A stretch of DNA of 63,515 nucleotides from Pseudobdellovibrionaceae bacterium (GTDB lineage Bacteria > Bdellovibrionota > Bdellovibrionia > Bdellovibrionales > Bdellovibrionaceae): positions 1 to 63,515 of the forward strand of contig JBDHWW010000019.1 of assembly GCA_039810425.1 (NCBI GenBank), given 5' to 3'. The position numbers were made by a program, and so were the translations under genes. A model generated the notes under the pieces. It ran no database searches, had not been told where the DNA came from, and saw nothing but the letters and a program-made list of their open reading frames with translations. The first letter of the stretch is position 1; each line of letters starts with the position of its first letter. Shown here piece by piece: positions 49,988 to 61,509 of this stretch.

Positions 49988-50488
49988 ATGTCCGAAACGC
50001 GCGCGCCTATCAGCAGCCTCAAAGCAAATCTGTTCTTAAAAGCCTATGGCCTGTTTAAAATCCCTCTGCTGGCCTATGTCGGCCCGAAATGCCTGGAGCT
50101 TTCCCCGACCCGCAGCGTGATTAAAATCAAACTCCGCCGCCGCACCAAGAACCACCTTAACGTCATGTACTTTGGCGCCCTTGGGATCGGTGCCGAGCTT
50201 TCCATTGCGATCACGGCGGTGGCGTCCATCTACGAAAGCGGTCAGCGCATTGATTTTATCTTTAAAGACTTTAAAGCGAACTTTCTCAAACGCTGTGATG
50301 GTGACGTCCACTTTATTTGCGATGAAGCCGACAAAGTCCGTGCGTTGATTGAAAAGGCCACAAAGACCGGCGAGCGCCTCGAAGGAACTTTCAAAGCCCA
50401 CTCAACGGTTCCTTCGACGAGTGAAACTGAGAAAGTGGCGACCTATGAGCTAACTCTGTCCGTGAAGAACCGCTCCATCAAATCCTAG
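49988..50488 (+). CDS. DUF4442 / PaaI-like hotdog-fold protein
   Basis: KIPLL, RRTKNHLNVMYFGAL, FKANFLKR..GDVHF. Confidence 0.8.
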   Translation: MSETRAPISSLKANLFLKAYGLFKIPLLAYVGPKCLELSPTRSVIKIKLRRRTKNHLNVMYFGALGIGAELSIAITAVASIYESGQRIDFIFKDFKANFLKRCDGDVHFICDEADKVRALIEKATKTGERLEGTFKAHSTVPSTSETEKVATYELTLSVKNRSIKS

Positions 50489-51139
50489 CAAATCACGGCG
50501 AACTTGTTCTAAAGGTTCTTTAAGCCTTTCTAATACGGGCACAGCCATCAGATTTTTCGACCGCTCTCCGAGGTGGAATGCTTCGGTGATCGTGCGCATA
50601 ATAGAGGTCGCCTTCTCCGGATGATTTTCAATAAAGTGGGTCAATGCTCCGGCAATGATAACCACACTCAGTGGCATGCAGTTCTGCCCTGTCATAAACG
50701 CCTGAATCGCGATTTCCCCTTCTAAAGAGGTGTCGTAACCCGTCAGTACATGCCAAAAATCATGTGCCTGATAAACACGCGAAGTAAAATAACTCTCAGC
50801 ACTTGAAAAATCCGGCTCTGGATAGAAATCGATATCCAGTCCACCTTGATTAAAGAAGTCTGCGGCCGCTTTACCGAAACTTCCCGCAGGATACTGATTC
50901 AGTTCCTCGAGCGCAGGGACTTGATACCAGTAGCGCGTCTCGTAAGCTTTTCGCAGCTCAGGAATACTCAGCAACGGTTTTAAAAGCGCTTCCACCCTTT
51001 CCGGCTCAGACGACTTTTGATAGGCCTTCGTCATATGGAAAATATCTTCCGTCTTGGTCGGGTCCTGCATGAATCTCAGGAAGTGATATTTGGCTTTTAC
51101 AGAATAAAATTTACGCGACGTCATCTCTAACGCGGTCAT
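50450..51139 (-). CDS. Coq4-family protein
   Basis: LNQYPAGSFG, HDFWHVLTGY...GE (HDxxH-x11-E). Confidence 0.8.
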   Translation of the reverse strand: MTALEMTSRKFYSVKAKYHFLRFMQDPTKTEDIFHMTKAYQKSSEPERVEALLKPLLSIPELRKAYETRYWYQVPALEELNQYPAGSFGKAAADFFNQGGLDIDFYPEPDFSSAESYFTSRVYQAHDFWHVLTGYDTSLEGEIAIQAFMTGQNCMPLSVVIIAGALTHFIENHPEKATSIMRTITEAFHLGERSKNLMAVPVLERLKEPLEQVRRDLLGFDGAVLHGQS

Positions 51140-51161
51140 AGCTACATCCCCACAGTATTTG

Positions 51162-51177
51162 ATTGGCAAGTGCCAAT
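51162..51177. promoter_or_regulatory. Candidate TetR operator
   Basis: Perfect inverted repeat ATTGGCA-AG-TGCCAAT between the divergent coq4-like and tetR genes. Confidence 0.45.
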
Positions 51178-51258
51178 GACCAAGATAATACCAATCTAGG
51201 ATCCCCTTCGAAACTCGGCGAAAAAGACGGACTTCGGGATTGAAAAAAGGCGGCGAAA

Positions 51259-51861
51259 ATGGAATCTAAACCATTGAAAAAACAGCCAAAACAAAAACGT
51301 TCACAGGATGTTGTCGATGCCATTCTTGAGGCTGCGACTCGGATTCTTTCGGAAAAAACCCTGCAATCCACCACGACCAATCGAATCGCAGACACTGCCG
51401 GCGTTGGCATTGGTTCAGTCTATGATTATTTTCCAGATAAAAAATCAATCGCGATTGCACTGATTGACCGTCGCTTAGAAAAAACTCTGAATGCCCTCGA
51501 AGAGCTTTTGAACCAACCGCAACTGACATTGCCAGAGCTGATTGATCAGAGTTTTGAGTTTATTGATGACCACTTTTGGAGTAAACGCGCATTTTTACGT
51601 CAGATTTTTATACTCGCTCCGGAAAGTGGGCGCATGGACAGTCTTTTTCAACATCGCTTTCAAGCCACTCTGCTTTTGCAAAAAACATTGGTAGAGAAAT
51701 ATCAGAAAGATCCAGTGTGGGCTGAACAGAAGGCCTTTATTTTGATGAACTCCGTGATGGGAGTCCTCGATGGATCCATTATCACTGAGCACTTCCCTTT
51801 TGAGTCTGAATCACTCAAAAAGGACCTCAAGCAGATGGTCCGAGCGATTTTAGAAAGCTAA
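51259..51861 (+). CDS. TetR/AcrR family regulator
   Basis: PKQKRS, TTNRIADTAGVGIGSVYDYFPDK HTH. Confidence 0.92.
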   Translation: MESKPLKKQPKQKRSQDVVDAILEAATRILSEKTLQSTTTNRIADTAGVGIGSVYDYFPDKKSIAIALIDRRLEKTLNALEELLNQPQLTLPELIDQSFEFIDDHFWSKRAFLRQIFILAPESGRMDSLFQHRFQATLLLQKTLVEKYQKDPVWAEQKAFILMNSVMGVLDGSIITEHFPFESESLKKDLKQMVRAILES

Positions 51862-53945: not shown

Positions 53946-54599
53946 ATGAAAGTGCTCCGCTGGGTCCTTATTAACTTTGGCGTTCTAATTCTATTCCAGG
54001 CAACCAAGTATTTCTTGGGCCTGCAATGGGCAATAGGGGTCTCTATGGCTTACGCCATTGGCGAGATCCTTTGGCTGAAAATTCGCAGAAGAACCATCTC
54101 ACCGTTTATGCTCTTTTCCCTTGCCGTAGTTTTACTATTTGGAGTTCTCGATCTGTGGCTCACCAATGACTTCTTTATGAAGCTCGAATCTGCAGTGATG
54201 AATCTCATGATGGCTGGATTATTTGGTTTATCGTTATTCCGCGAGAAAACCATCGTCGAAGAGCTTGCAGAAAATCAGGGCCGTATTACGAAAGAAAAGA
54301 CGCCTGACAAAACTTTCTTTTTCCACTTCGTCACCGCTATCTGGTTTTTGTATTACATTCTTCGCGCCTTTGCCTTTACCTGGATGAACTTCGCAATGGC
54401 AGATGGCGAGTCCTTTATTCTCAAGACCTTCCTTGGCACAGCCAGTTTTTATATCTTACTAGCTGCTTCCATAGGACTGAACCAACAGCTTTGGAACTTG
54501 CTTCTTAAGCTCCGCCTTATGCCATCTACGCGCAAAAATCCAATGACGGAAACTTCCATGCAACGGCCTTGCATCGGAACCCGGAATTTGGAATCCTAA
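53946..54599 (+). CDS. Inner membrane protein, YciB/IspZ-like
   Basis: ~6 TM; VVLLFGVLDL..NDFFMKL; GAGG RBS. Confidence 0.65.
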   Translation: MKVLRWVLINFGVLILFQATKYFLGLQWAIGVSMAYAIGEILWLKIRRRTISPFMLFSLAVVLLFGVLDLWLTNDFFMKLESAVMNLMMAGLFGLSLFREKTIVEELAENQGRITKEKTPDKTFFFHFVTAIWFLYYILRAFAFTWMNFAMADGESFILKTFLGTASFYILLAASIGLNQQLWNLLLKLRLMPSTRKNPMTETSMQRPCIGTRNLES

Positions 54600-54717
54600 G
54601 TAGGAGCAGACGGGTTCATACGGATACTTTTGAACCTACGGAGGGGGGAAGGCCGCGCTTGGTTGCTATAAGCACCAGGAGCGAGCGCCCCGCTGCTATA
54701 AATCAGTTTCGCCAAAT

Positions 54718-54747
54718 AAAAAAAGCCAAGGTTTCCCTTGGCTTTTC
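54718..54747. terminator. Bidirectional intrinsic terminator
   Basis: AAAAAAAGCCAAGG-TTTC-CCTTGGCTTTT between convergent genes. Confidence 0.85.
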
Positions 54748-54769
54748 ATCTTTATTGTCAAAATTTATC

Positions 54770-55045
54770 TTAGTGCGTGTTGTTTTCGATCACAGAAGCT
54801 GGAGCGCGTGAATTTGGGTTTTCCATTGAACCACTGCGCACAGAATTTGGTGCTGCCACTGTCGTAGAAACGTTGGCTTTCACTTTAGCACCATTCACAC
54901 CGCACTTGCCGTCTTTACCTTTTTTGTAACCATCAGCGCATTCTTTTGTCGCTGCTGCGGCCTTAGCCTTCTTTGAGTAGCCAGCCATCGCAGATCCAGA
55001 GATTGCACAAACAAACGTGAGTAATGCTGCTGCCAATAGTTTCAC
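54770..55045 (-). CDS. Small basic secreted protein
   Basis: GGAGG RBS, GTG start, signal peptide (..SAMA), Cys pair, C-terminal RAPAS. Confidence 0.7.
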   Translation of the reverse strand: MKLLAAALLTFVCAISGSAMAGYSKKAKAAAATKECADGYKKGKDGKCGVNGAKVKANVSTTVAAPNSVRSGSMENPNSRAPASVIENNTH

Positions 55046-55141
55046 AAATGCCTCCTGAGGTCACATGTCAGTGATTTCAGAATAACATCGAGTTTTTGAA
55101 GGACCTAGGGAAAATCCCAAAATGGGATACTGACAACCGAC

Positions 55142-55753
55142 CTAAGGTCTAGCCAAGCGCTTGGCAAAGGCCTTAAGAGCCTCTCCATATTCGCCGAGGT
55201 CCTTGATAATCGTCTGAGCATGCCATTTAGAAGGCTCGACGAACTGGTTATGCATCGGACGCACCTGAAGCTCAAACTGCCTCTTAACCCCGTCAGCAGT
55301 GCGTCCACGCTCATGCACGTCGCGCTCGAGGCGGCGGCTAAAGCGGAGTGCCTCGGGGGTGTCAAAAAAGACCGCCTCATCCAATACCGCGCGCACATCG
55401 GTGGAGTGAAGGATCAAGATGCCGTCCACCAGAATCACCGGCTTCGGAGGGCTCACGAGAACTTCTTTTCTGCGGGAATGGGTCACAAAATCATAGATAG
55501 GAACATTGATGGTTGCGCCTGTTTTTAGTTGGCGCAAGCCCTTTGCCATCAGGGGAAAATCCAAGGAATCCGGGTGGTCGAAATTCACCGAACCACCATC
55601 ACCATCGAACTTTGCCGATTGATCGATATAGTAGTTGTCTTGATAAAGAATCATACAATGCTCATCGCCAAGAGTCCTTTGCAGCTCTTTTGCGAAATGG
55701 GTCTTACCTGACCCACTTCCTCCCGCGACACCGATAATATGAGGTCTCATCAT
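55142..55753 (-). CDS. udk: Uridine kinase
   Basis: IGVAGGSGSGKT, QDNYY, NFDHPDS, RRLERDVHERGR, VRPMHNQFVEPSK. Confidence 0.93.
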   Translation of the reverse strand: MMRPHIIGVAGGSGSGKTHFAKELQRTLGDEHCMILYQDNYYIDQSAKFDGDGGSVNFDHPDSLDFPLMAKGLRQLKTGATINVPIYDFVTHSRRKEVLVSPPKPVILVDGILILHSTDVRAVLDEAVFFDTPEALRFSRRLERDVHERGRTADGVKRQFELQVRPMHNQFVEPSKWHAQTIIKDLGEYGEALKAFAKRLARP

Positions 55754-55761
55754 GCAGTCAC

Positions 55762-56394
55762 CTACTTGGTTTGAAATAAACGATCCCCGGCATCACCGAG
55801 GCCGGGCACCAGATAACCACTTTCGTTTATCTCATTTTCAATGTTGACCGTATAGACTTCGACGTCAGGATGAAAGTATTGAACCTTTTCCAGACCGATT
55901 TTACTCGCCAAAATGCTGATTACTTTTACTTTGCCCGCGCCGTAGTTTTTAAGGCGGTCAATCGCGGCAATAATCGTATCGGCCGTCGCGATCAAAGGAT
56001 CACACAACAGGACCTCGCGGCCAGCGATGTCCTTCGGCATTTTGAAATAGTACTCCACGGTGTTGTGGATGAACTTATCACGGTAAATACCTATAAAGCC
56101 CGTGCTGGCAAAGGGAATCATCGACAAAGCGGCGTCGAGCATCCCATTCCCCGCACGCATGATTGACACCACCACCGGCGGCTGGGTAATTCTTTCCACC
56201 GTCGTTTTTGCGATCGGCGTTTCAACCGCGATTTGCTCAAGTTGGGTCCAATCTTTCATCGCTTCATAGACGAGGATTTTGGAAATCTCTTTCACGATCT
56301 CGCGGAAGTCCTGAGAGTACGTATTTTTATCACGGAGGTATCCGAGTTTATGCTTTAAAAGCGGGTTTGTAATCACCTTGATATTTTTATTCAT
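55762..56394 (-). CDS. upp: Uracil phosphoribosyltransferase (URC6-like)
   Basis: HKLGYLRD, SIMRAG, DPLIATA, YLVPGLGDAGDR; start reset to MNKNIK. Confidence 0.9.
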   Translation of the reverse strand: MNKNIKVITNPLLKHKLGYLRDKNTYSQDFREIVKEISKILVYEAMKDWTQLEQIAVETPIAKTTVERITQPPVVVSIMRAGNGMLDAALSMIPFASTGFIGIYRDKFIHNTVEYYFKMPKDIAGREVLLCDPLIATADTIIAAIDRLKNYGAGKVKVISILASKIGLEKVQYFHPDVEVYTVNIENEINESGYLVPGLGDAGDRLFQTK

Positions 56395-56461
56395 AGTCGT
56401 TTCTCTTTTTCTAATTGCGTTGCGGGTCTTGGGCCCGTCGCCCTGTCGGCTTCCACAAACT

Positions 56462-57673
56462 TTAAAAAACAGTTCCATCGCTTTCAATTTTAAGCGGTGG
56501 CGAAGAGTCCGCGCGCAAAGCTTTCGCCGCTTTACGGCCGGCCCACCAAGTACCACCCTCCAAAACTTTCGCAAGAGGAAATTCCGAAGGCGATTTGCCC
56601 AATTTTCTCTGCACTTCAGCGCCAATACGGTCCAGCAGCGAAATCGTCAGCCCCCGCCATTCAATAATCAGCTCCGAATCAGGACGGTGGTTCAAAACGG
56701 CCATTCCGGGATCACGCAACGTGATCAAGCCACGATCAATCAGCAATCCACCGTTGCGGTACTCCGCAAGTCCTGTCAGTTTTTCGACATCCGTGACTTC
56801 AAAACCAGCTTCAGCGATGGGCTCCATAAGTGAATACGTCATCCACTGCGAAAGCTTATGAAAGGCCGCCAAGCCCCCTGGCACTTTCGAGTAATTCCAA
56901 ATATCACCCAAGTTCACACCCGCCACGCGCACGCGTCCCGGCCAGATTTCGCCCAAGCCATCGAGCACGGCCCGCAAAACCTGCGGGCCAGTCAGCTTTT
57001 TGCCATGACGTTTTTGCAAGTAATCAAGCATGCTGCCTGGACGCCCCCCAGGGAAAATCTCTTTCTTCGCCTCGATAGTCTTTCCCAAATTGCGCAGCAA
57101 AGACAGACGCCCTTCGACACCGATCAACGGGTTTTCCGCCGTGGCTTGGAATGCACTCGAAAGCTTTTCAACCGTCAAATTTTGCAAGCCCCTCTCCGTC
57201 GCCCTCAACGGATGAGCACCGTCGCCAGAGAGTGCGCCTTCCATAAAAAGGTAAAAACTCGCGACGCCCAAACCTTCAGAGCGGCCGAAGGTTTTACCCG
57301 TGCTTTTTTCCCGATAAGCCCAGACATTGCCGGCCCCGGCATCGAGCAAAGCCGAAGTGATAACCAAATCCAGCTTCGTGCGGGCTTTTTCCACCGCATC
57401 CAGGCCAGACATTTTAGCTTCCAAGGCCTGAACGCGGTCCACTCCTCCCACGCGGAAGTGTCCCCAGCGGGAATGAAAGGGAATATTCAAAGCCGGATAG
57501 TTTTCACGGATCACTTCAACAACGTAGTCCACCACGGGCATCAGTTTCTCGGGATGATAACTAAAATGCGTCTCGCCTTTTTGCGTAAGCTCTAAAATCT
57601 TCTCAGCGCTTTGACGGATCGCCACAGGTGACAAAAGAAAATCCAAATCTTTTTCAGTATAAGAATTACTCAT
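56462..57673 (-). CDS. URC4/Urg3 family protein (DUF1688)
   Basis: IPFHSRWGHF, LLDAGAG, RSEGLGVAS, FHKLSQWMTYS, LTGLAEYRNGGL, EGGTW, IESDGTVF. Confidence 0.9.
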   Translation of the reverse strand: MSNSYTEKDLDFLLSPVAIRQSAEKILELTQKGETHFSYHPEKLMPVVDYVVEVIRENYPALNIPFHSRWGHFRVGGVDRVQALEAKMSGLDAVEKARTKLDLVITSALLDAGAGNVWAYREKSTGKTFGRSEGLGVASFYLFMEGALSGDGAHPLRATERGLQNLTVEKLSSAFQATAENPLIGVEGRLSLLRNLGKTIEAKKEIFPGGRPGSMLDYLQKRHGKKLTGPQVLRAVLDGLGEIWPGRVRVAGVNLGDIWNYSKVPGGLAAFHKLSQWMTYSLMEPIAEAGFEVTDVEKLTGLAEYRNGGLLIDRGLITLRDPGMAVLNHRPDSELIIEWRGLTISLLDRIGAEVQRKLGKSPSEFPLAKVLEGGTWWAGRKAAKALRADSSPPLKIESDGTVF

Positions 57674-58922
57674 CAATCGGCCTTCCTTTAACTTTATCGA
57701 GCTGCTCGGCATTTTTCTTTTCGCCAGGGTTGAAATAGCCCGCCGCCTTCTTGGCTTCGATTTCTACTTGGGCATCGGCTGGAATCAGCTCGGACGGAAT
57801 GGAAATGCGGTTCACGACTTCAATTCCGCTCTTCACGATGGCGTCGTATTTCATATTCGACATTGAGTGCAGGTTATGAATCTTCGTAATACCAAAAAAG
57901 TGGAGGATATCCGGCATCAACTCTTGGAAACGAGCATCTTCAACTCCCGCCACACATTCGGTACGGTGAAAGTAGGTCGCAGCCGAGTCCCCGCCTTTTT
58001 GACGTTTGCGGGCGTTGTAAACCAAGAACTTCGTCACCTCACCCAGCGCACGGCCCTCCTTACGATAGTAAGCGATGAATCCCACACCTCCGCGCTGAGC
58101 CGTTCTTGCCGCATCTTCAATACCGTAAATCAAATAAGGGCGGCACGTGCAGATATCCGAACCAAACACGTCAGAACCATTGCACTCATCATGCACCCGG
58201 CACGTGAGTTCCACTTCTGGTTTTGAAAGATCTTGGAGGTCACCGAAAATATAAACGGTCGTGCTGCCAATTGGCGGAAGCATGACTTTGATATCCGGAC
58301 GAGTCACCAGCTCAGGAAACATCCCGCCGGTTTCTTGGAACAGGATCTTACGAAGCTCCCCTTCATCGACGCCAAGGCGTTTTGCAATCCCCGGCAAATA
58401 CCACACGGGCTCCAGCGCCACCTTCGTGACGCGGATGTCGCGATTTTCTTTAATAATTTTCCCGTCCACCTTCAAACGTCCGGCATCAATGGCTTCGTGA
58501 ATCTCAGGAATTTGCAAATGCGCCTGAGTCACCGCAATCGTCGGGCGAACATCATAGCCCTCGTCATAGAATTTTTTAAAATGAATTGGCACATCCAAGC
58601 CCCATGGATCGATCGAAACCATTTTATCCGGGTCAGACCATGAAGGGAAGGGACCGACTTTGACCGGGCTCTCGGTGTTATTCAAGTCCGGCTTATGACG
58701 AGTTGAGTACTTCCCTTGAGCAATCGAAAGAGCGCGATAGACCGCATAGCTTCCACTGTGCGTACCGATGGCGTTGCGTTTTTTCGTGTCCGTCAAAGAG
58801 CCGATAATCGGTCCGCGCTCCGTGGGATTTTTCGCCCCCCAATGGATTGGCAAGCTGTCTTTGAAAACATGTTGCGAATGTGACGTCAGAATAACGTGTG
58901 CTGATCTTTTCATCTCGCTCAT
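57666..58922 (-). CDS. URC1/Urg1-type GTP cyclohydrolase II-like protein
   Basis: N-terminal extension (WGA..RGPII, RNAIGTHSGSYAVYRAL); RVHDECNGSDVFGSDICTC zinc motif; RKEGRALGEVTK. Confidence 0.9.
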   Translation of the reverse strand: MSEMKRSAHVILTSHSQHVFKDSLPIHWGAKNPTERGPIIGSLTDTKKRNAIGTHSGSYAVYRALSIAQGKYSTRHKPDLNNTESPVKVGPFPSWSDPDKMVSIDPWGLDVPIHFKKFYDEGYDVRPTIAVTQAHLQIPEIHEAIDAGRLKVDGKIIKENRDIRVTKVALEPVWYLPGIAKRLGVDEGELRKILFQETGGMFPELVTRPDIKVMLPPIGSTTVYIFGDLQDLSKPEVELTCRVHDECNGSDVFGSDICTCRPYLIYGIEDAARTAQRGGVGFIAYYRKEGRALGEVTKFLVYNARKRQKGGDSAATYFHRTECVAGVEDARFQELMPDILHFFGITKIHNLHSMSNMKYDAIVKSGIEVVNRISIPSELIPADAQVEIEAKKAAGYFNPGEKKNAEQLDKVKGRPIDE

Positions 58923-58933
58923 AAATGAACCTC

Positions 58934-60409
58934 TTACGACATCCAGTTGTTGTCGTCTTGTTTTTCCCATTTAACAGTGACTTTTTTAATATTGCTCCAG
59001 AAATCCAACGAGTGGTGGCCGGTGATATCCCCGTGACCAAACTTGGAGGCATTCACCCCACCGAACGAGAATGGCTCGCGCGGCACTGGAACGCCGACAT
59101 TGACCCCCACCATTCCCGTGGAGGCCTGACGAATGACTTTCTCAGCCAGATTTCCGCTGGAAGTAAACACCGAACAGGCATTACCGTACTCGACACTGTT
59201 TTCGATTTCCATGGCGTGGGAAATATCTTTGCAACGAACAATGCTCAGAACCGGACCGAAAAGTTCCAGCGTCGCGGCCTCGCTCCCCGGAGTGACATTG
59301 TCGATGACGGTGGGACCGATCCAGTTCCCACCCTCGAGCCCCGCAGGTGGTTTCGCCTTCCTGCCGTCCAAAAGGATTTTTGCGCCCTTCTTCTCGGCAT
59401 TGCCAATGGCCTGACTCAAGAACTCCACTTGAGATTTGGTGATGATGGCTCCCATGTCTTCGCCTAAAACCAAAGACTGCGCGCGCTCAACGATTTTAGC
59501 GATGTGCTTATCGACGTCCCCGACGGCCAGCAAGACGGCTGCCGCCATACAACGCTGACCCGCGCATCCCGTGAAGGAATCGCTAATCCCCATGCCGGAA
59601 AGTTCCGGATTTGCATCCGGCAAAAGAACAATATGATTTTTTGCGCCACCTAAAGCCAGCACACGCTTGCCTTGACGAGTGCCACGCTCATAAACGGCTT
59701 TTGCGACGGCCGTCGATCCGACAAAGCCAATAGCCTTGACATCTTTGTGATCAATGATGGCTTCCACGGTTTCGCGACCGCCTTGCAGAACTTGGAACAA
59801 ACCGTCCGGCAGTCCCGCTTCTTTTAGAGCGGCCGCAATTCGCAGAGAGGTGAGAGGCGTTTTTTCAGAGGGTTTCCAGATGTAGGCATTTCCCAAAGTC
59901 AATGCAATAGGAATCGTCCACATCGGCACCATCGCCGGAAAGTTGAACGGAGTGATATTCGCAACCACCCCCAAAGGTTCACGGCGGTATTCGCACGAAA
60001 CCCCACGAGACACCTCCGCCTTGCCACCAAGATCCATATTCTGAAGCGCAATCGCAAACTCCAGAACTTCGATCCCTTTCATCAGCCCGGCTTTGCCTTC
60101 AGCAAAACTTTTTCCTGACTCAGAGCTTTTCACGTGAGAGATTTCATCAAGATCGCGCATCAAGACCTGGCGGAAGTTGAACATCACTTTCGTGCGTTCT
60201 TTGAGTGGCACATTCGCCCACTCGGCTTGCGCTTTTTTGGCGGCTTTCGCGGCCGTATCAACTTCGGCCGCCGTGGTGGCCTTCATCTCTCCGATGACTT
60301 TGCCGTTGTAAGGGCTCAGAACCGTCATCGCGGCGCCCGATGCGTTTTGAAATTTCCCATTCACGAAGTTTTCAACTTGAATGGGGGCCCCTGGAATCTT
60401 CACGCTCAT
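58934..60409 (-). CDS. mmsA: CoA-acylating (methyl)malonate-semialdehyde dehydrogenase
   Basis: ITPFNFPAMVPMW, KPSE, GFVGST, GGAKNH, GCAGQRCMA, GMVGVNVGVPVP. Confidence 0.92.
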   Translation of the reverse strand: MSVKIPGAPIQVENFVNGKFQNASGAAMTVLSPYNGKVIGEMKATTAAEVDTAAKAAKKAQAEWANVPLKERTKVMFNFRQVLMRDLDEISHVKSSESGKSFAEGKAGLMKGIEVLEFAIALQNMDLGGKAEVSRGVSCEYRREPLGVVANITPFNFPAMVPMWTIPIALTLGNAYIWKPSEKTPLTSLRIAAALKEAGLPDGLFQVLQGGRETVEAIIDHKDVKAIGFVGSTAVAKAVYERGTRQGKRVLALGGAKNHIVLLPDANPELSGMGISDSFTGCAGQRCMAAAVLLAVGDVDKHIAKIVERAQSLVLGEDMGAIITKSQVEFLSQAIGNAEKKGAKILLDGRKAKPPAGLEGGNWIGPTVIDNVTPGSEAATLELFGPVLSIVRCKDISHAMEIENSVEYGNACSVFTSSGNLAEKVIRQASTGMVGVNVGVPVPREPFSFGGVNASKFGHGDITGHHSLDFWSNIKKVTVKWEKQDDNNWMS

Positions 60410-60449
60410 ACGAACCTCTTTATTTTCACTGTGGGAAAACAAAAAGTGT

Positions 60450-60455
60450 ATTATA
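60450..60455 (-). promoter_or_regulatory. Consensus -10 box upstream of the mmsA-URC operon
   Basis: TATAAT on the minus strand ~40 nt before the ATG, with an AGAGG RBS. Confidence 0.5.
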
Positions 60456-60530
60456 CCGCCTTATATTTGCCAGCGAAAAAGAGCATTTATACTATTACGT
60501 AACACTCCCTGACGTGACGCCACAAAATAA

Positions 60531-61346
60531 CTAAATGTTCGTTACCTCTCCCATCGTTTTTTCAAGCAGTTCCAGGCCCTTATAGTCGTTCTCAACGATG
60601 GTATTGGCCTGAATGATGACCGCAGTCATGAGCTCGCCCTCATCCTTGGTTTTCTCTTCAAAACTTGCGAGCTTCTCTAAGTTACGCATGGCCTTCTCTT
60701 GTTCTTCGATCCAGGCTTTATAGGACGCGCGGCTGATTTTGCACGACTGAACGCCAAACTTGGCCGACACTTTTTCTTTCGCCCCATCATCCCCCTTCTT
60801 ACGAAATCCTTCGCGTACAAGTTCGAGAAAAAACTCACCAGAGTTCCTGATAGCGTTCTCGTAATAAATATCTCCTAGAACGCCGCTACCGAGAGTTGGA
60901 ATGCCTTTAAAATTCGGCTTCACTTTTTGTTTGCCCGTGACGCGAATCAGCCCCTGCTTCTCAAGCCCGATGAGGTACTTGTCAGTGGATCGCTGGGTCA
61001 GTCCGAACTTTTCGGCAATTTGCTTTGGCGTCCCGCCGCTAAAGAGCTGCATGAGGTAAGCAAAAAAGCTACGGTTCTTTGCCAGAAAGGTCTCTTGCTC
61101 CGGAGTAAAATGCACTTCGCGGACCTCACCAGCGCCTATCATAGCTTCGAGTTCTGCAAGGTCGATATCGACAATCTCACAAAGTTGCAGCAAGCGGTTT
61201 AACGTCAACTCCTCGGGGCCGAGGATTCGCTTGATCGTCGGGACGGAGCACTCCAGTTGCTCTGCAAGATCTTCGTAGGTGATGCTTTTCTTTTTCAGAA
61301 GCTCTTTGATAACGGTTTTGATTTTTTGCGACTTGAAGCCTTTCAC
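60531..61346 (-). CDS. XRE-family HTH transcriptional regulator
   Basis: ITYEDLAEQLECSVPTIKRIL; second HTH-like segment (PKQIAEKFGL..LEKQGLI). Confidence 0.85.
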   Translation of the reverse strand: MKGFKSQKIKTVIKELLKKKSITYEDLAEQLECSVPTIKRILGPEELTLNRLLQLCEIVDIDLAELEAMIGAGEVREVHFTPEQETFLAKNRSFFAYLMQLFSGGTPKQIAEKFGLTQRSTDKYLIGLEKQGLIRVTGKQKVKPNFKGIPTLGSGVLGDIYYENAIRNSGEFFLELVREGFRKKGDDGAKEKVSAKFGVQSCKISRASYKAWIEEQEKAMRNLEKLASFEEKTKDEGELMTAVIIQANTIVENDYKGLELLEKTMGEVTNI

Positions 61347-61356
61347 AGCGGGCGCC

Positions 61357-61509
61357 CTAATATCTTAGCAAAGACGAAAGGTGATTGCCATTGTAGCCCT
61401 CGCGCGACCGGCGCACCGTAGGCACCGAAAATTCTCGTTCAAGCACGGCGATATCCGTCGCTGCATTCAAACTAAAGAATCTTTGAAGCAGGTTTGTGAA
61501 GTGTCTCAT
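61357..61509 (-). CDS. Unannotated 50-aa small protein
   Basis: AAGGAG RBS; MRHFTNLLQRFFSLNAATDIAVLEREFSVPTVRRSREGYNGNHLSSLLRY*; ends 10 nt before the regulator start. Confidence 0.6.
   Translation of the reverse strand: MRHFTNLLQRFFSLNAATDIAVLEREFSVPTVRRSREGYNGNHLSSLLRY

Follow-up and report, generated by a model that had tools for sequence, protein, structure and literature searches.

A URC-type pyrimidine operon of Bdellovibrionota that probably carries uracil and uridine carbon to acetyl-CoA

Pyrimidine breakdown by the URC route has been described in yeasts (URC1-6 and URC8 of Lachancea kluyveri; urg1-urg3 of S. pombe), where the reductase URC8 yields 3-hydroxypropionate and a urea amidolyase (URC3,5) is present. 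A bacterial URC1-URC4-upp cluster, the pathway and its key enzyme are also already known, which limits the surprise of the locus treated here: a five-gene operon, mmsA-URC1-URC4-upp-udk, on contig JBDHWW010000019.1 of a Pseudobdellovibrionaceae bacterium. The window is the whole stretch of DNA that was analysed, 63,515 nucleotides (nt) long, from a genome that is 99.88% complete. The operon has URC1, an adjoining URC4 and a uracil phosphoribosyltransferase (UPRTase) in common with the yeast pathway and adds mmsA and udk to the yeast and bacterial forms; it lacks a urea amidolyase, a linked transporter and a reductase, and nitrogen is apparently not recovered. It is a conserved operon, typical of the Bdellovibrionota, and constitutes a lineage-specific variant of the known URC route. 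As read from its genes, it probably degrades both uracil and uridine, yielding acetyl-CoA and ribose phosphate and leaving urea as waste, a carbon and energy route that discards nitrogen; confidence in the chemistry is good, and lower in the physiology.

An ending in acetyl-CoA has precedent in the reductive (Pyd) pathway, and that of Bacillus megaterium was reportedly described by Zhu et al. in 2020. The likeness is that malonate-semialdehyde dehydrogenase (MSDH) takes uracil carbon via malonate semialdehyde to acetyl-CoA. In the Pyd pathway, PydABC reduce the ring and open it at the level of the base, whereas here it would be hydrolysed at the level of UTP, and neither a PreA nor a RutA orthologue was found in the genome. 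The MSDH through which uracil carbon reaches acetyl-CoA in B. megaterium is described as part of a gene cluster (PMC7332683).

The five genes are open, lie co-directionally on the minus strand, and are as follows (lengths in amino acids, aa):

60409-58934, minus strand: mmsA, 491 aa, CoA-acylating (methyl)malonate-semialdehyde dehydrogenase of an operon-specific clade
58922-57666, minus strand: URC1/UrcA, 418 aa, predicted GTP cyclohydrolase II-like UTP cyclohydrolase with an N-terminal GTP_CH_N domain (PF12471 + PF00925, NF005536)
57673-56462, minus strand: URC4 (DUF1688), 403 aa, PF07958 at E 2.5e-142, predicted Qng1-like N-glycosidase of helix-hairpin-helix (HhH) fold
56394-55762, minus strand: upp, 210 aa, uracil phosphoribosyltransferase, the URC6 equivalent (TIGR01091, 232 bits, above cut-off)
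55753-55142, minus strand: udk, 203 aa, uridine kinase (NF004018, 224.7 bits, above cut-off; TIGR00235, 186 bits, below cut-off)

mmsA and URC1 lie 11 nt apart, URC1 and URC4 overlap by 8 nt, and gaps of 67 nt and 8 nt precede upp and udk, respectively; Pfam and NCBIfam calls are concordant for all five family names. The coordinates, gaps and family calls bear out the original prediction, made from the DNA letters of this locus, of five tightly spaced co-directional genes with these identities and a URC-type catabolism.

The proposed route begins with Upp (uracil + phosphoribosyl pyrophosphate) and Udk (uridine + nucleoside triphosphate), both of which, by family-level assignment, would yield UMP. 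Unlinked pyrH (48%) and ndk (55%) are present in the genome, and their kinases would carry UMP to UTP. URC1 would then hydrolyse UTP twice and so open its uracil ring, as reported for the 63%-identical UrcA, with malonate semialdehyde and a ribosylurea phosphate as the expected products. URC4 would cut the N-glycosidic bond of ribosylurea-5'-phosphate to give urea and ribose-5-phosphate, a reaction for which fold and conservation nominate Glu304 (the equivalent of Qng1 Asp231), Lys273 and the carboxylate of the C-terminal Phe403. MmsA, judged by its family and co-occurrence, would convert malonate semialdehyde to acetyl-CoA, CO2 and NADH, and urea would be excreted.

UrcA is reportedly a UTP cyclohydrolase, and its PDB entries 7EEV and 7EJ3 are said to stem from Zhang et al. 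2021, ACS Catal 11:8895. URC1 matches these entries, whose titles read UTP cyclohydrolase, at a phmmer E value of 1e-175, and Foldseek aligns the URC1 model with them at a template-modelling (TM) score of 0.89 and 63% identity over about 395 columns. The closest relatives of URC1 are those of Bdellovibrio and Bacteriovorax (84-88%), and the zinc-site cysteines Cys247, Cys258 and Cys260 are invariant (114/114). During uracil breakdown, UrcA hydrolyses UTP in two steps (PMC9499338). Because of the 63% identity and this review statement, the substrate of URC1 is predicted to be UTP, not UMP; the activity of the present orthologue is likewise a prediction from identity, fold and cysteines. The original prediction had called the Urc1 reaction "not resolved", which the reviewed two-step hydrolysis by so close a homologue renders outdated. 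It had also anticipated that automatic annotation would mislabel URC1, and NCBIfam and RefSeq do name it "GTP cyclohydrolase II".

The least understood URC enzyme has been URC4/DUF1688, the family that also includes fungal Urc4/Urg3; it is the single enzyme of the operon that lacks a solved structure. Single-sequence and profile searches of the PDB with URC4 gave nothing significant, and Qng1 surfaced solely in the fold search. An AlphaFold2 model built from 98 sequences (confidence score, pLDDT, 94.5) finds its match in Qng1/DUF2419 both with Foldseek (E 3.7e-8, TM 0.63/0.73) and with VIA-align (Z 28.3, root-mean-square deviation 2.9 A, 321 residues aligned across residues 9-403), the next VIA-align matches being HhH DNA glycosylases with Z of 11 or less. 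A URC4 profile set against six Qng1-family proteins gives a probability of 92% (E 5e-7), and hhalign pairs Lys273 of URC4 with Lys198 and Glu304 with Asp230 of that family; by their near-identical numbering, the latter would be Lys199 and, as the proposed nucleophile, Asp231 in the Qng1 of known structure (PMC9881137). Lys273 and Glu304 are invariant in 98/98 aligned sequences. A terminal Phe-stop closes 109/109 URC4 homologues, echoing the C-terminal carboxylate with which Qng1 binds the ribose and which a C-terminal tag blocks (PMC9881137); the hhalign alignment ended at residue 356, and the correspondences of the C-terminus and of Glu372/Trp376 rest on the aligned range and spacing.

Given the Qng1 fold, the matching lysine and acidic residues and the fixed C-terminal phenylalanine, URC4 probably frees urea from ribosylurea-5'-phosphate, leaving ribose-5-phosphate. 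A common fold is no proof of function, yet it is consistent with the role already proposed for URC4. The likeness to Qng1/QNG1 (DUF2419), the queuosine-5'-monophosphate N-glycosidase, extends over a whole-chain HhH-glycosylase fold, the lysine and acid positions and a conserved C-terminal aromatic residue. The two differ in that URC4 has Glu304 in place of the aspartate, scores weakly against the queuosine salvage family PF10343 (19.7 of 25 bits, below the gathering score), and has a ring-opened ureido-ribotide, not queuosine, as its predicted substrate; URC4 appears from these comparisons to form a sister family of Qng1/DUF2419 and not a member of it. A concrete assay and mutants can now be named for URC4, and a C-terminal tag should inactivate the enzyme, as in Qng1.

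The acetyl-CoA ending is well supported by genomics. MmsA is the sole methylmalonate-semialdehyde dehydrogenase (MMSDH) of the genome; its top ten PDB matches are all MMSDH, at least 97% of 69 rows retain Cys287 and Asn156, and its TIGR01722 score of 447.8 bits falls just short of the cut-off (448.5) and is 170 bits above that of the next family. The cut-off is passed by many MmsA orthologues. In the phylum sample, which consists of 251 Bdellovibrionota genomes each at least 90% complete, MMSDH (counted at E 1e-110 or better) occurs in 128. URC4 and MMSDH occur together in 93 genomes, adjacent to one another in 76, while three have URC4 alone, 35 MMSDH alone and 120 neither; related genomes are non-independent, and the counts do not amount to a statistical test. 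When MMSDH is divided by bit score, which stands in roughly for clade and in which "operon-type" denotes less than 500 bits, the operon type is found in 84 genomes, 81 of them with URC4.

A different MMSDH (39-41% identity) lies divergently beside URC1 in four loci, three of them from Cellvibrionaceae and one from Micavibrio. It scores 680-704 bits in the three that were scanned and occupies a long separate branch of an MMSDH tree built without unlinked outgroups. The separate branch of this distant enzyme suggests that the MMSDH-URC link arose twice, by independent recruitment. The Micavibrio aeruginosavorus locus (L081:6338-9915) has URC1-upp with the divergent MMSDH and no URC4 in 17 kb, and the Cellvibrionaceae loci (L048-L050) combine a URC cluster and the divergent ordinary MMSDH with a second, convergent upp. 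In a URC1 tree from a quick, unfinished search, Cellvibrionaceae URC1 falls among Bdellovibrionota sequences, a possible transfer.

URC4 is present in 96 of the 251 phylum genomes, and gene order was compared at 40 loci hand-picked from these 96 over 12 families. All 40 have URC1-URC4-upp; in 38 of them udk comes after upp, and one of the two exceptions stops at a contig edge, while mmsA lies directly upstream of URC1 in 29. The gene order is far above chance. URC4 also occurs in 21 of 391 Pseudomonadota genomes (a sample unfiltered for completeness), and no MMSDH or udk lies within 7 kb of the locus in 20 of these 21 (0/20), of which 18 have upp. Near the clusters that lack mmsA, a scan of 79 of 200 flanking open reading frames (ORFs) found no recurring reductase, urease or transporter. 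Some proteobacterial URC clusters (L073, L175, L250) carry a RutR-like (TetR_C_3) regulator, a BMP-type ABC transporter or deaminase-like genes after upp, which suggests uracil-sensing control of those clusters; none of the three is found in the Bdellovibrionota operon.

In the source genome, tblastn finds a single copy each of upp and udk. The genome also has pyrF of the de novo pathway, and no NCS1/NCS2 uracil permease was found in it. A BMP-type ABC transporter (G000:C59:1951-6519, G000 being the source genome) could import nucleosides, and a cluster at G000:C1:22842-25632 comprises deoC, a pyrimidine nucleoside phosphorylase and a purine nucleoside phosphorylase-like gene; together they could supply uracil or uridine to the operon.

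For nitrogen, the original prediction noted no urea-splitting enzyme in the operon, and the absence proves to extend over the whole source genome, in which neither urease nor urea carboxylase, nor any urea amidolyase, was found. Urea carboxylase is present in 0/251 phylum genomes, which have no urea amidolyase either, and the urease matches among them amount to three weak ones of 40 residues; one of the urea-enzyme scans of the 251 scored two candidates per genome. Urease is present in one of the five URC-bearing genomes reached via named loci. With urease and urea carboxylase missing, urea is probably waste and its nitrogen discarded.

Several points weigh against a dedicated route from uracil to acetyl-CoA. 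MmsA falls narrowly under its family cut-off in a long-branch clade, and its substrate is a prediction; an adjacent MMSDH is missing from 11/40 phylum loci and from 20/20 Pseudomonadota loci; Upp and Udk, as sole copies, must serve salvage too; and URC4 and Qng1 are just 14-16% identical, with the aspartate replaced by glutamate. An unlinked YdfG orthologue, 46% identical, provides a possible reductive exit, and the earlier claim that MmsA "replaces" the reductase is upheld for the operon, which has none, and not for the genome at large. On the physiological side, the operon genes of Bdellovibrio bacteriovorus HD100 are called silent by RNA-seq, at 0-14 reads per kilobase per million (RPKM) in attack phase and 0.7-1.6 after 3 h in prey (PMC3627812), and their lower expression in host-independent growth is shared by 37% of all genes, so that any attack-phase bias is weak (PMC2797640).

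These HD100 data concern genes annotated as MMSDH (Bd1534), UPRTase (Bd1531) and uridine kinase (Bd1530) (PMC7529429), with Bd1533 labelled GTP cyclohydrolase (PMC2797640). Bd1534 (1476 nt) and Bd1531 (633 nt) have the same lengths as mmsA and upp here, and from order, names and length Bd1530-Bd1534 are taken to be orthologous to the operon. Bd1532 and Bd1533 have no entry in the nine supplements of the metabolic model iCH457 that were searched (PMC7529429), and the literature search, which covered sources other than subscription papers, found no paper on the operon and no main-text mention of Bd1530-Bd1534. By microarray, the operon genes stand at fold changes of 0.85-1.01 after 30 min in prey, none significant, and in host-independent growth the five stand together at levels 2.3- to 5-fold below those of attack phase (PMC2797640). 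The RNA-seq values after 3 h in prey correspond to one read per gene among about 988,000 coding reads (PMC3627812). The listing of UPPRT and URIK2 by iCH457 as attack-phase-only was given little weight, since RNA-seq puts both below the authors' threshold for expression.

Induction on prey RNA is unsupported at 30 min and 3 h in HD100, as is the view that the operon burns prey RNA. A bias toward the non-growing phase has weak support. About half of the uracil label from prey RNA ends in predator RNA, which fits salvage (PMC12907353). The operon is probably used conditionally and is not the principal outlet for prey RNA; we would tentatively place its use in non-growing or starving cells or under pyrimidine excess. 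A more specific proposal, which we advance tentatively as one possibility, is that the operon gives predators between prey a dedicated, nitrogen-discarding route by which uridine nucleotides from their own RNA are burned to acetyl-CoA, ribose-5-phosphate and NADH; URC4 would form a second branch of metabolism built on the Qng1/HhH fold and may use Glu304 and the C-terminal carboxylate. The operon marks a candidate source of energy for survival without prey.

The same chemistry could instead serve overflow control or detoxification, trimming an excess of UTP or uracil while MmsA clears toxic malonate semialdehyde and energy is incidental. This differs from the catabolic reading only in purpose and seems to us somewhat unlikely. 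Near-silent expression under standard conditions would suit it, as would the RutR-like regulators beside URC clusters in some Proteobacteria and an entry cost that, reckoned from the steps of Upp, PyrH and Ndk, may reach four high-energy phosphates for each uracil; the yield of acetyl-CoA, NADH and ribose phosphate should, however, outweigh that cost, and the unlinked YdfG could detoxify, yet MMSDH follows URC4 almost perfectly.

Doubtful, and set lower again, is the idea that the operon is induced in the bdelloplast to oxidise prey pyrimidines by this same chemistry. The frequency of URC4 in Bdellovibrionota relative to the (unfiltered) Pseudomonadota would accord with such a role, as would the BMP-type transporter, and both HD100 data sets leave 45-150 min of the cycle uncovered; the flat microarray values and the single reads per gene, from another genome, speak against it, as does the failure to find an NCS1/NCS2 permease.

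It is very improbable that URC1 is also, or mainly, the GTP cyclohydrolase II of riboflavin synthesis in a genome without RibA, a question raised by URC1 being the only PF00925 match in so complete a genome, which retains ribD, ribE, ribB and ribH and has no creatininase/ArfB-type formamidase. The riboflavin genes are located as follows, in the authors' contig and locus labels:

G000:C4:54519-56333 (L005-L007) and G000:C60:7922-9076 (L112): riboflavin genes of the source genome; relatives at L129-L143

The intact zinc cysteines of URC1 would permit a RibA role, and C247, C258 and C260 line up with the zinc-binding cysteines of E. coli RibA; they are common to UrcA too and are thus non-discriminating. 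URC1 is 27% identical to E. coli RibA over 134 aa and 17-18% identical to RibA structures, against 63% for the UTP cyclohydrolase, and it scores below the RibA family cut-offs (TIGR00505, 45.6 vs 205.85 bits; NF001591, 54.2 vs 148). A comparison of 61 relatives shows that the cyclohydrolase domain of RibBA is, family-wide, absent or without zinc cysteines: 14/14 low-scoring RibBA domains that were inspected lack them, six of these from genomes without URC4 that have only such a RibBA, and six further genomes have ribH and no PF00925 match. URC1 coexists with an intact RibBA in four genomes (G045, G048, G056, G057), and the HD100 URC1 gene is silent during growth. The riboflavin gap thus appears, from these sequences, to be lineage-wide and independent of URC. 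The annotation is corrected: URC1 is not RibA. Where ribD, ribE, ribB and ribH are kept without a working RibA, the pyrimidine precursor is perhaps prey-derived or made by an unknown enzyme.

3-Hydroxyisobutyrate dehydrogenase (HIBADH) provides methylmalonate semialdehyde from valine. Least credible of all is that mmsA is a valine gene, acting on methylmalonate semialdehyde and merely adjoining a URC/salvage cluster, as its being the only MMSDH of the genome and the placing of Bd1534 in valine metabolism by iCH457 (PMC7529429) would allow, for HIBADH is not found in the source genome, is above cut-off in 12/251 phylum genomes and 0/84 of those with operon-type MMSDH, and accompanies another, high-scoring MMSDH, mostly in a family (f16) whose URC loci lack mmsA. 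The prediction that MmsA serves the URC pathway and not valine is strengthened by these counts; Bd1534-type MmsA is probably no valine gene, and iCH457 lacks a uracil-to-acetyl-CoA route.

Two further elements flank the genes:

60455-60450, minus strand: TATAAT hexamer, candidate -10, seen in the sequence, without a good -35 at canonical spacing
54720-54747, no strand assigned: strong, two-way terminator-like hairpin, 12-pair stem plus T tail, a possible transcript end

A single TATAAT promoter had been proposed for the operon. The hexamer is present and a promoter plausible, but the promoter scan did not list the site, and TATAAT arises in 10% of shuffles of the same intergenic stretch (shuffle probability 0.10). 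Of 46 upstream regions, from 45 homologues and the window, 5 contain TATAAT, and by itself it appears to be poor evidence of a promoter. No clear common promoter or operator motif was found upstream of mmsA across the 46 regions; a TTTTCATTGG-like word is found there in fewer than 10 close relatives. An Rfam scan of 54300-61500 gave no match.

Upstream and co-directional, the gene at 60531-61346 (minus strand) encodes two helix-turn-helix domains, one Cro/C1-type and one winged; because it has no tblastn match among 124 related loci, it is probably not a conserved regulator of the operon. Between udk and the strong terminator, at 55045-54770 (minus strand), lies an ORF of 91 aa whose start resembles a signal peptide; it has no Pfam match and none in the 124 related loci. 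Elsewhere in the window, at 50450-51861, a Coq4-like gene is divergent from a TetR regulator, flanked by a DUF4442 gene and a nitronate monooxygenase-family gene.

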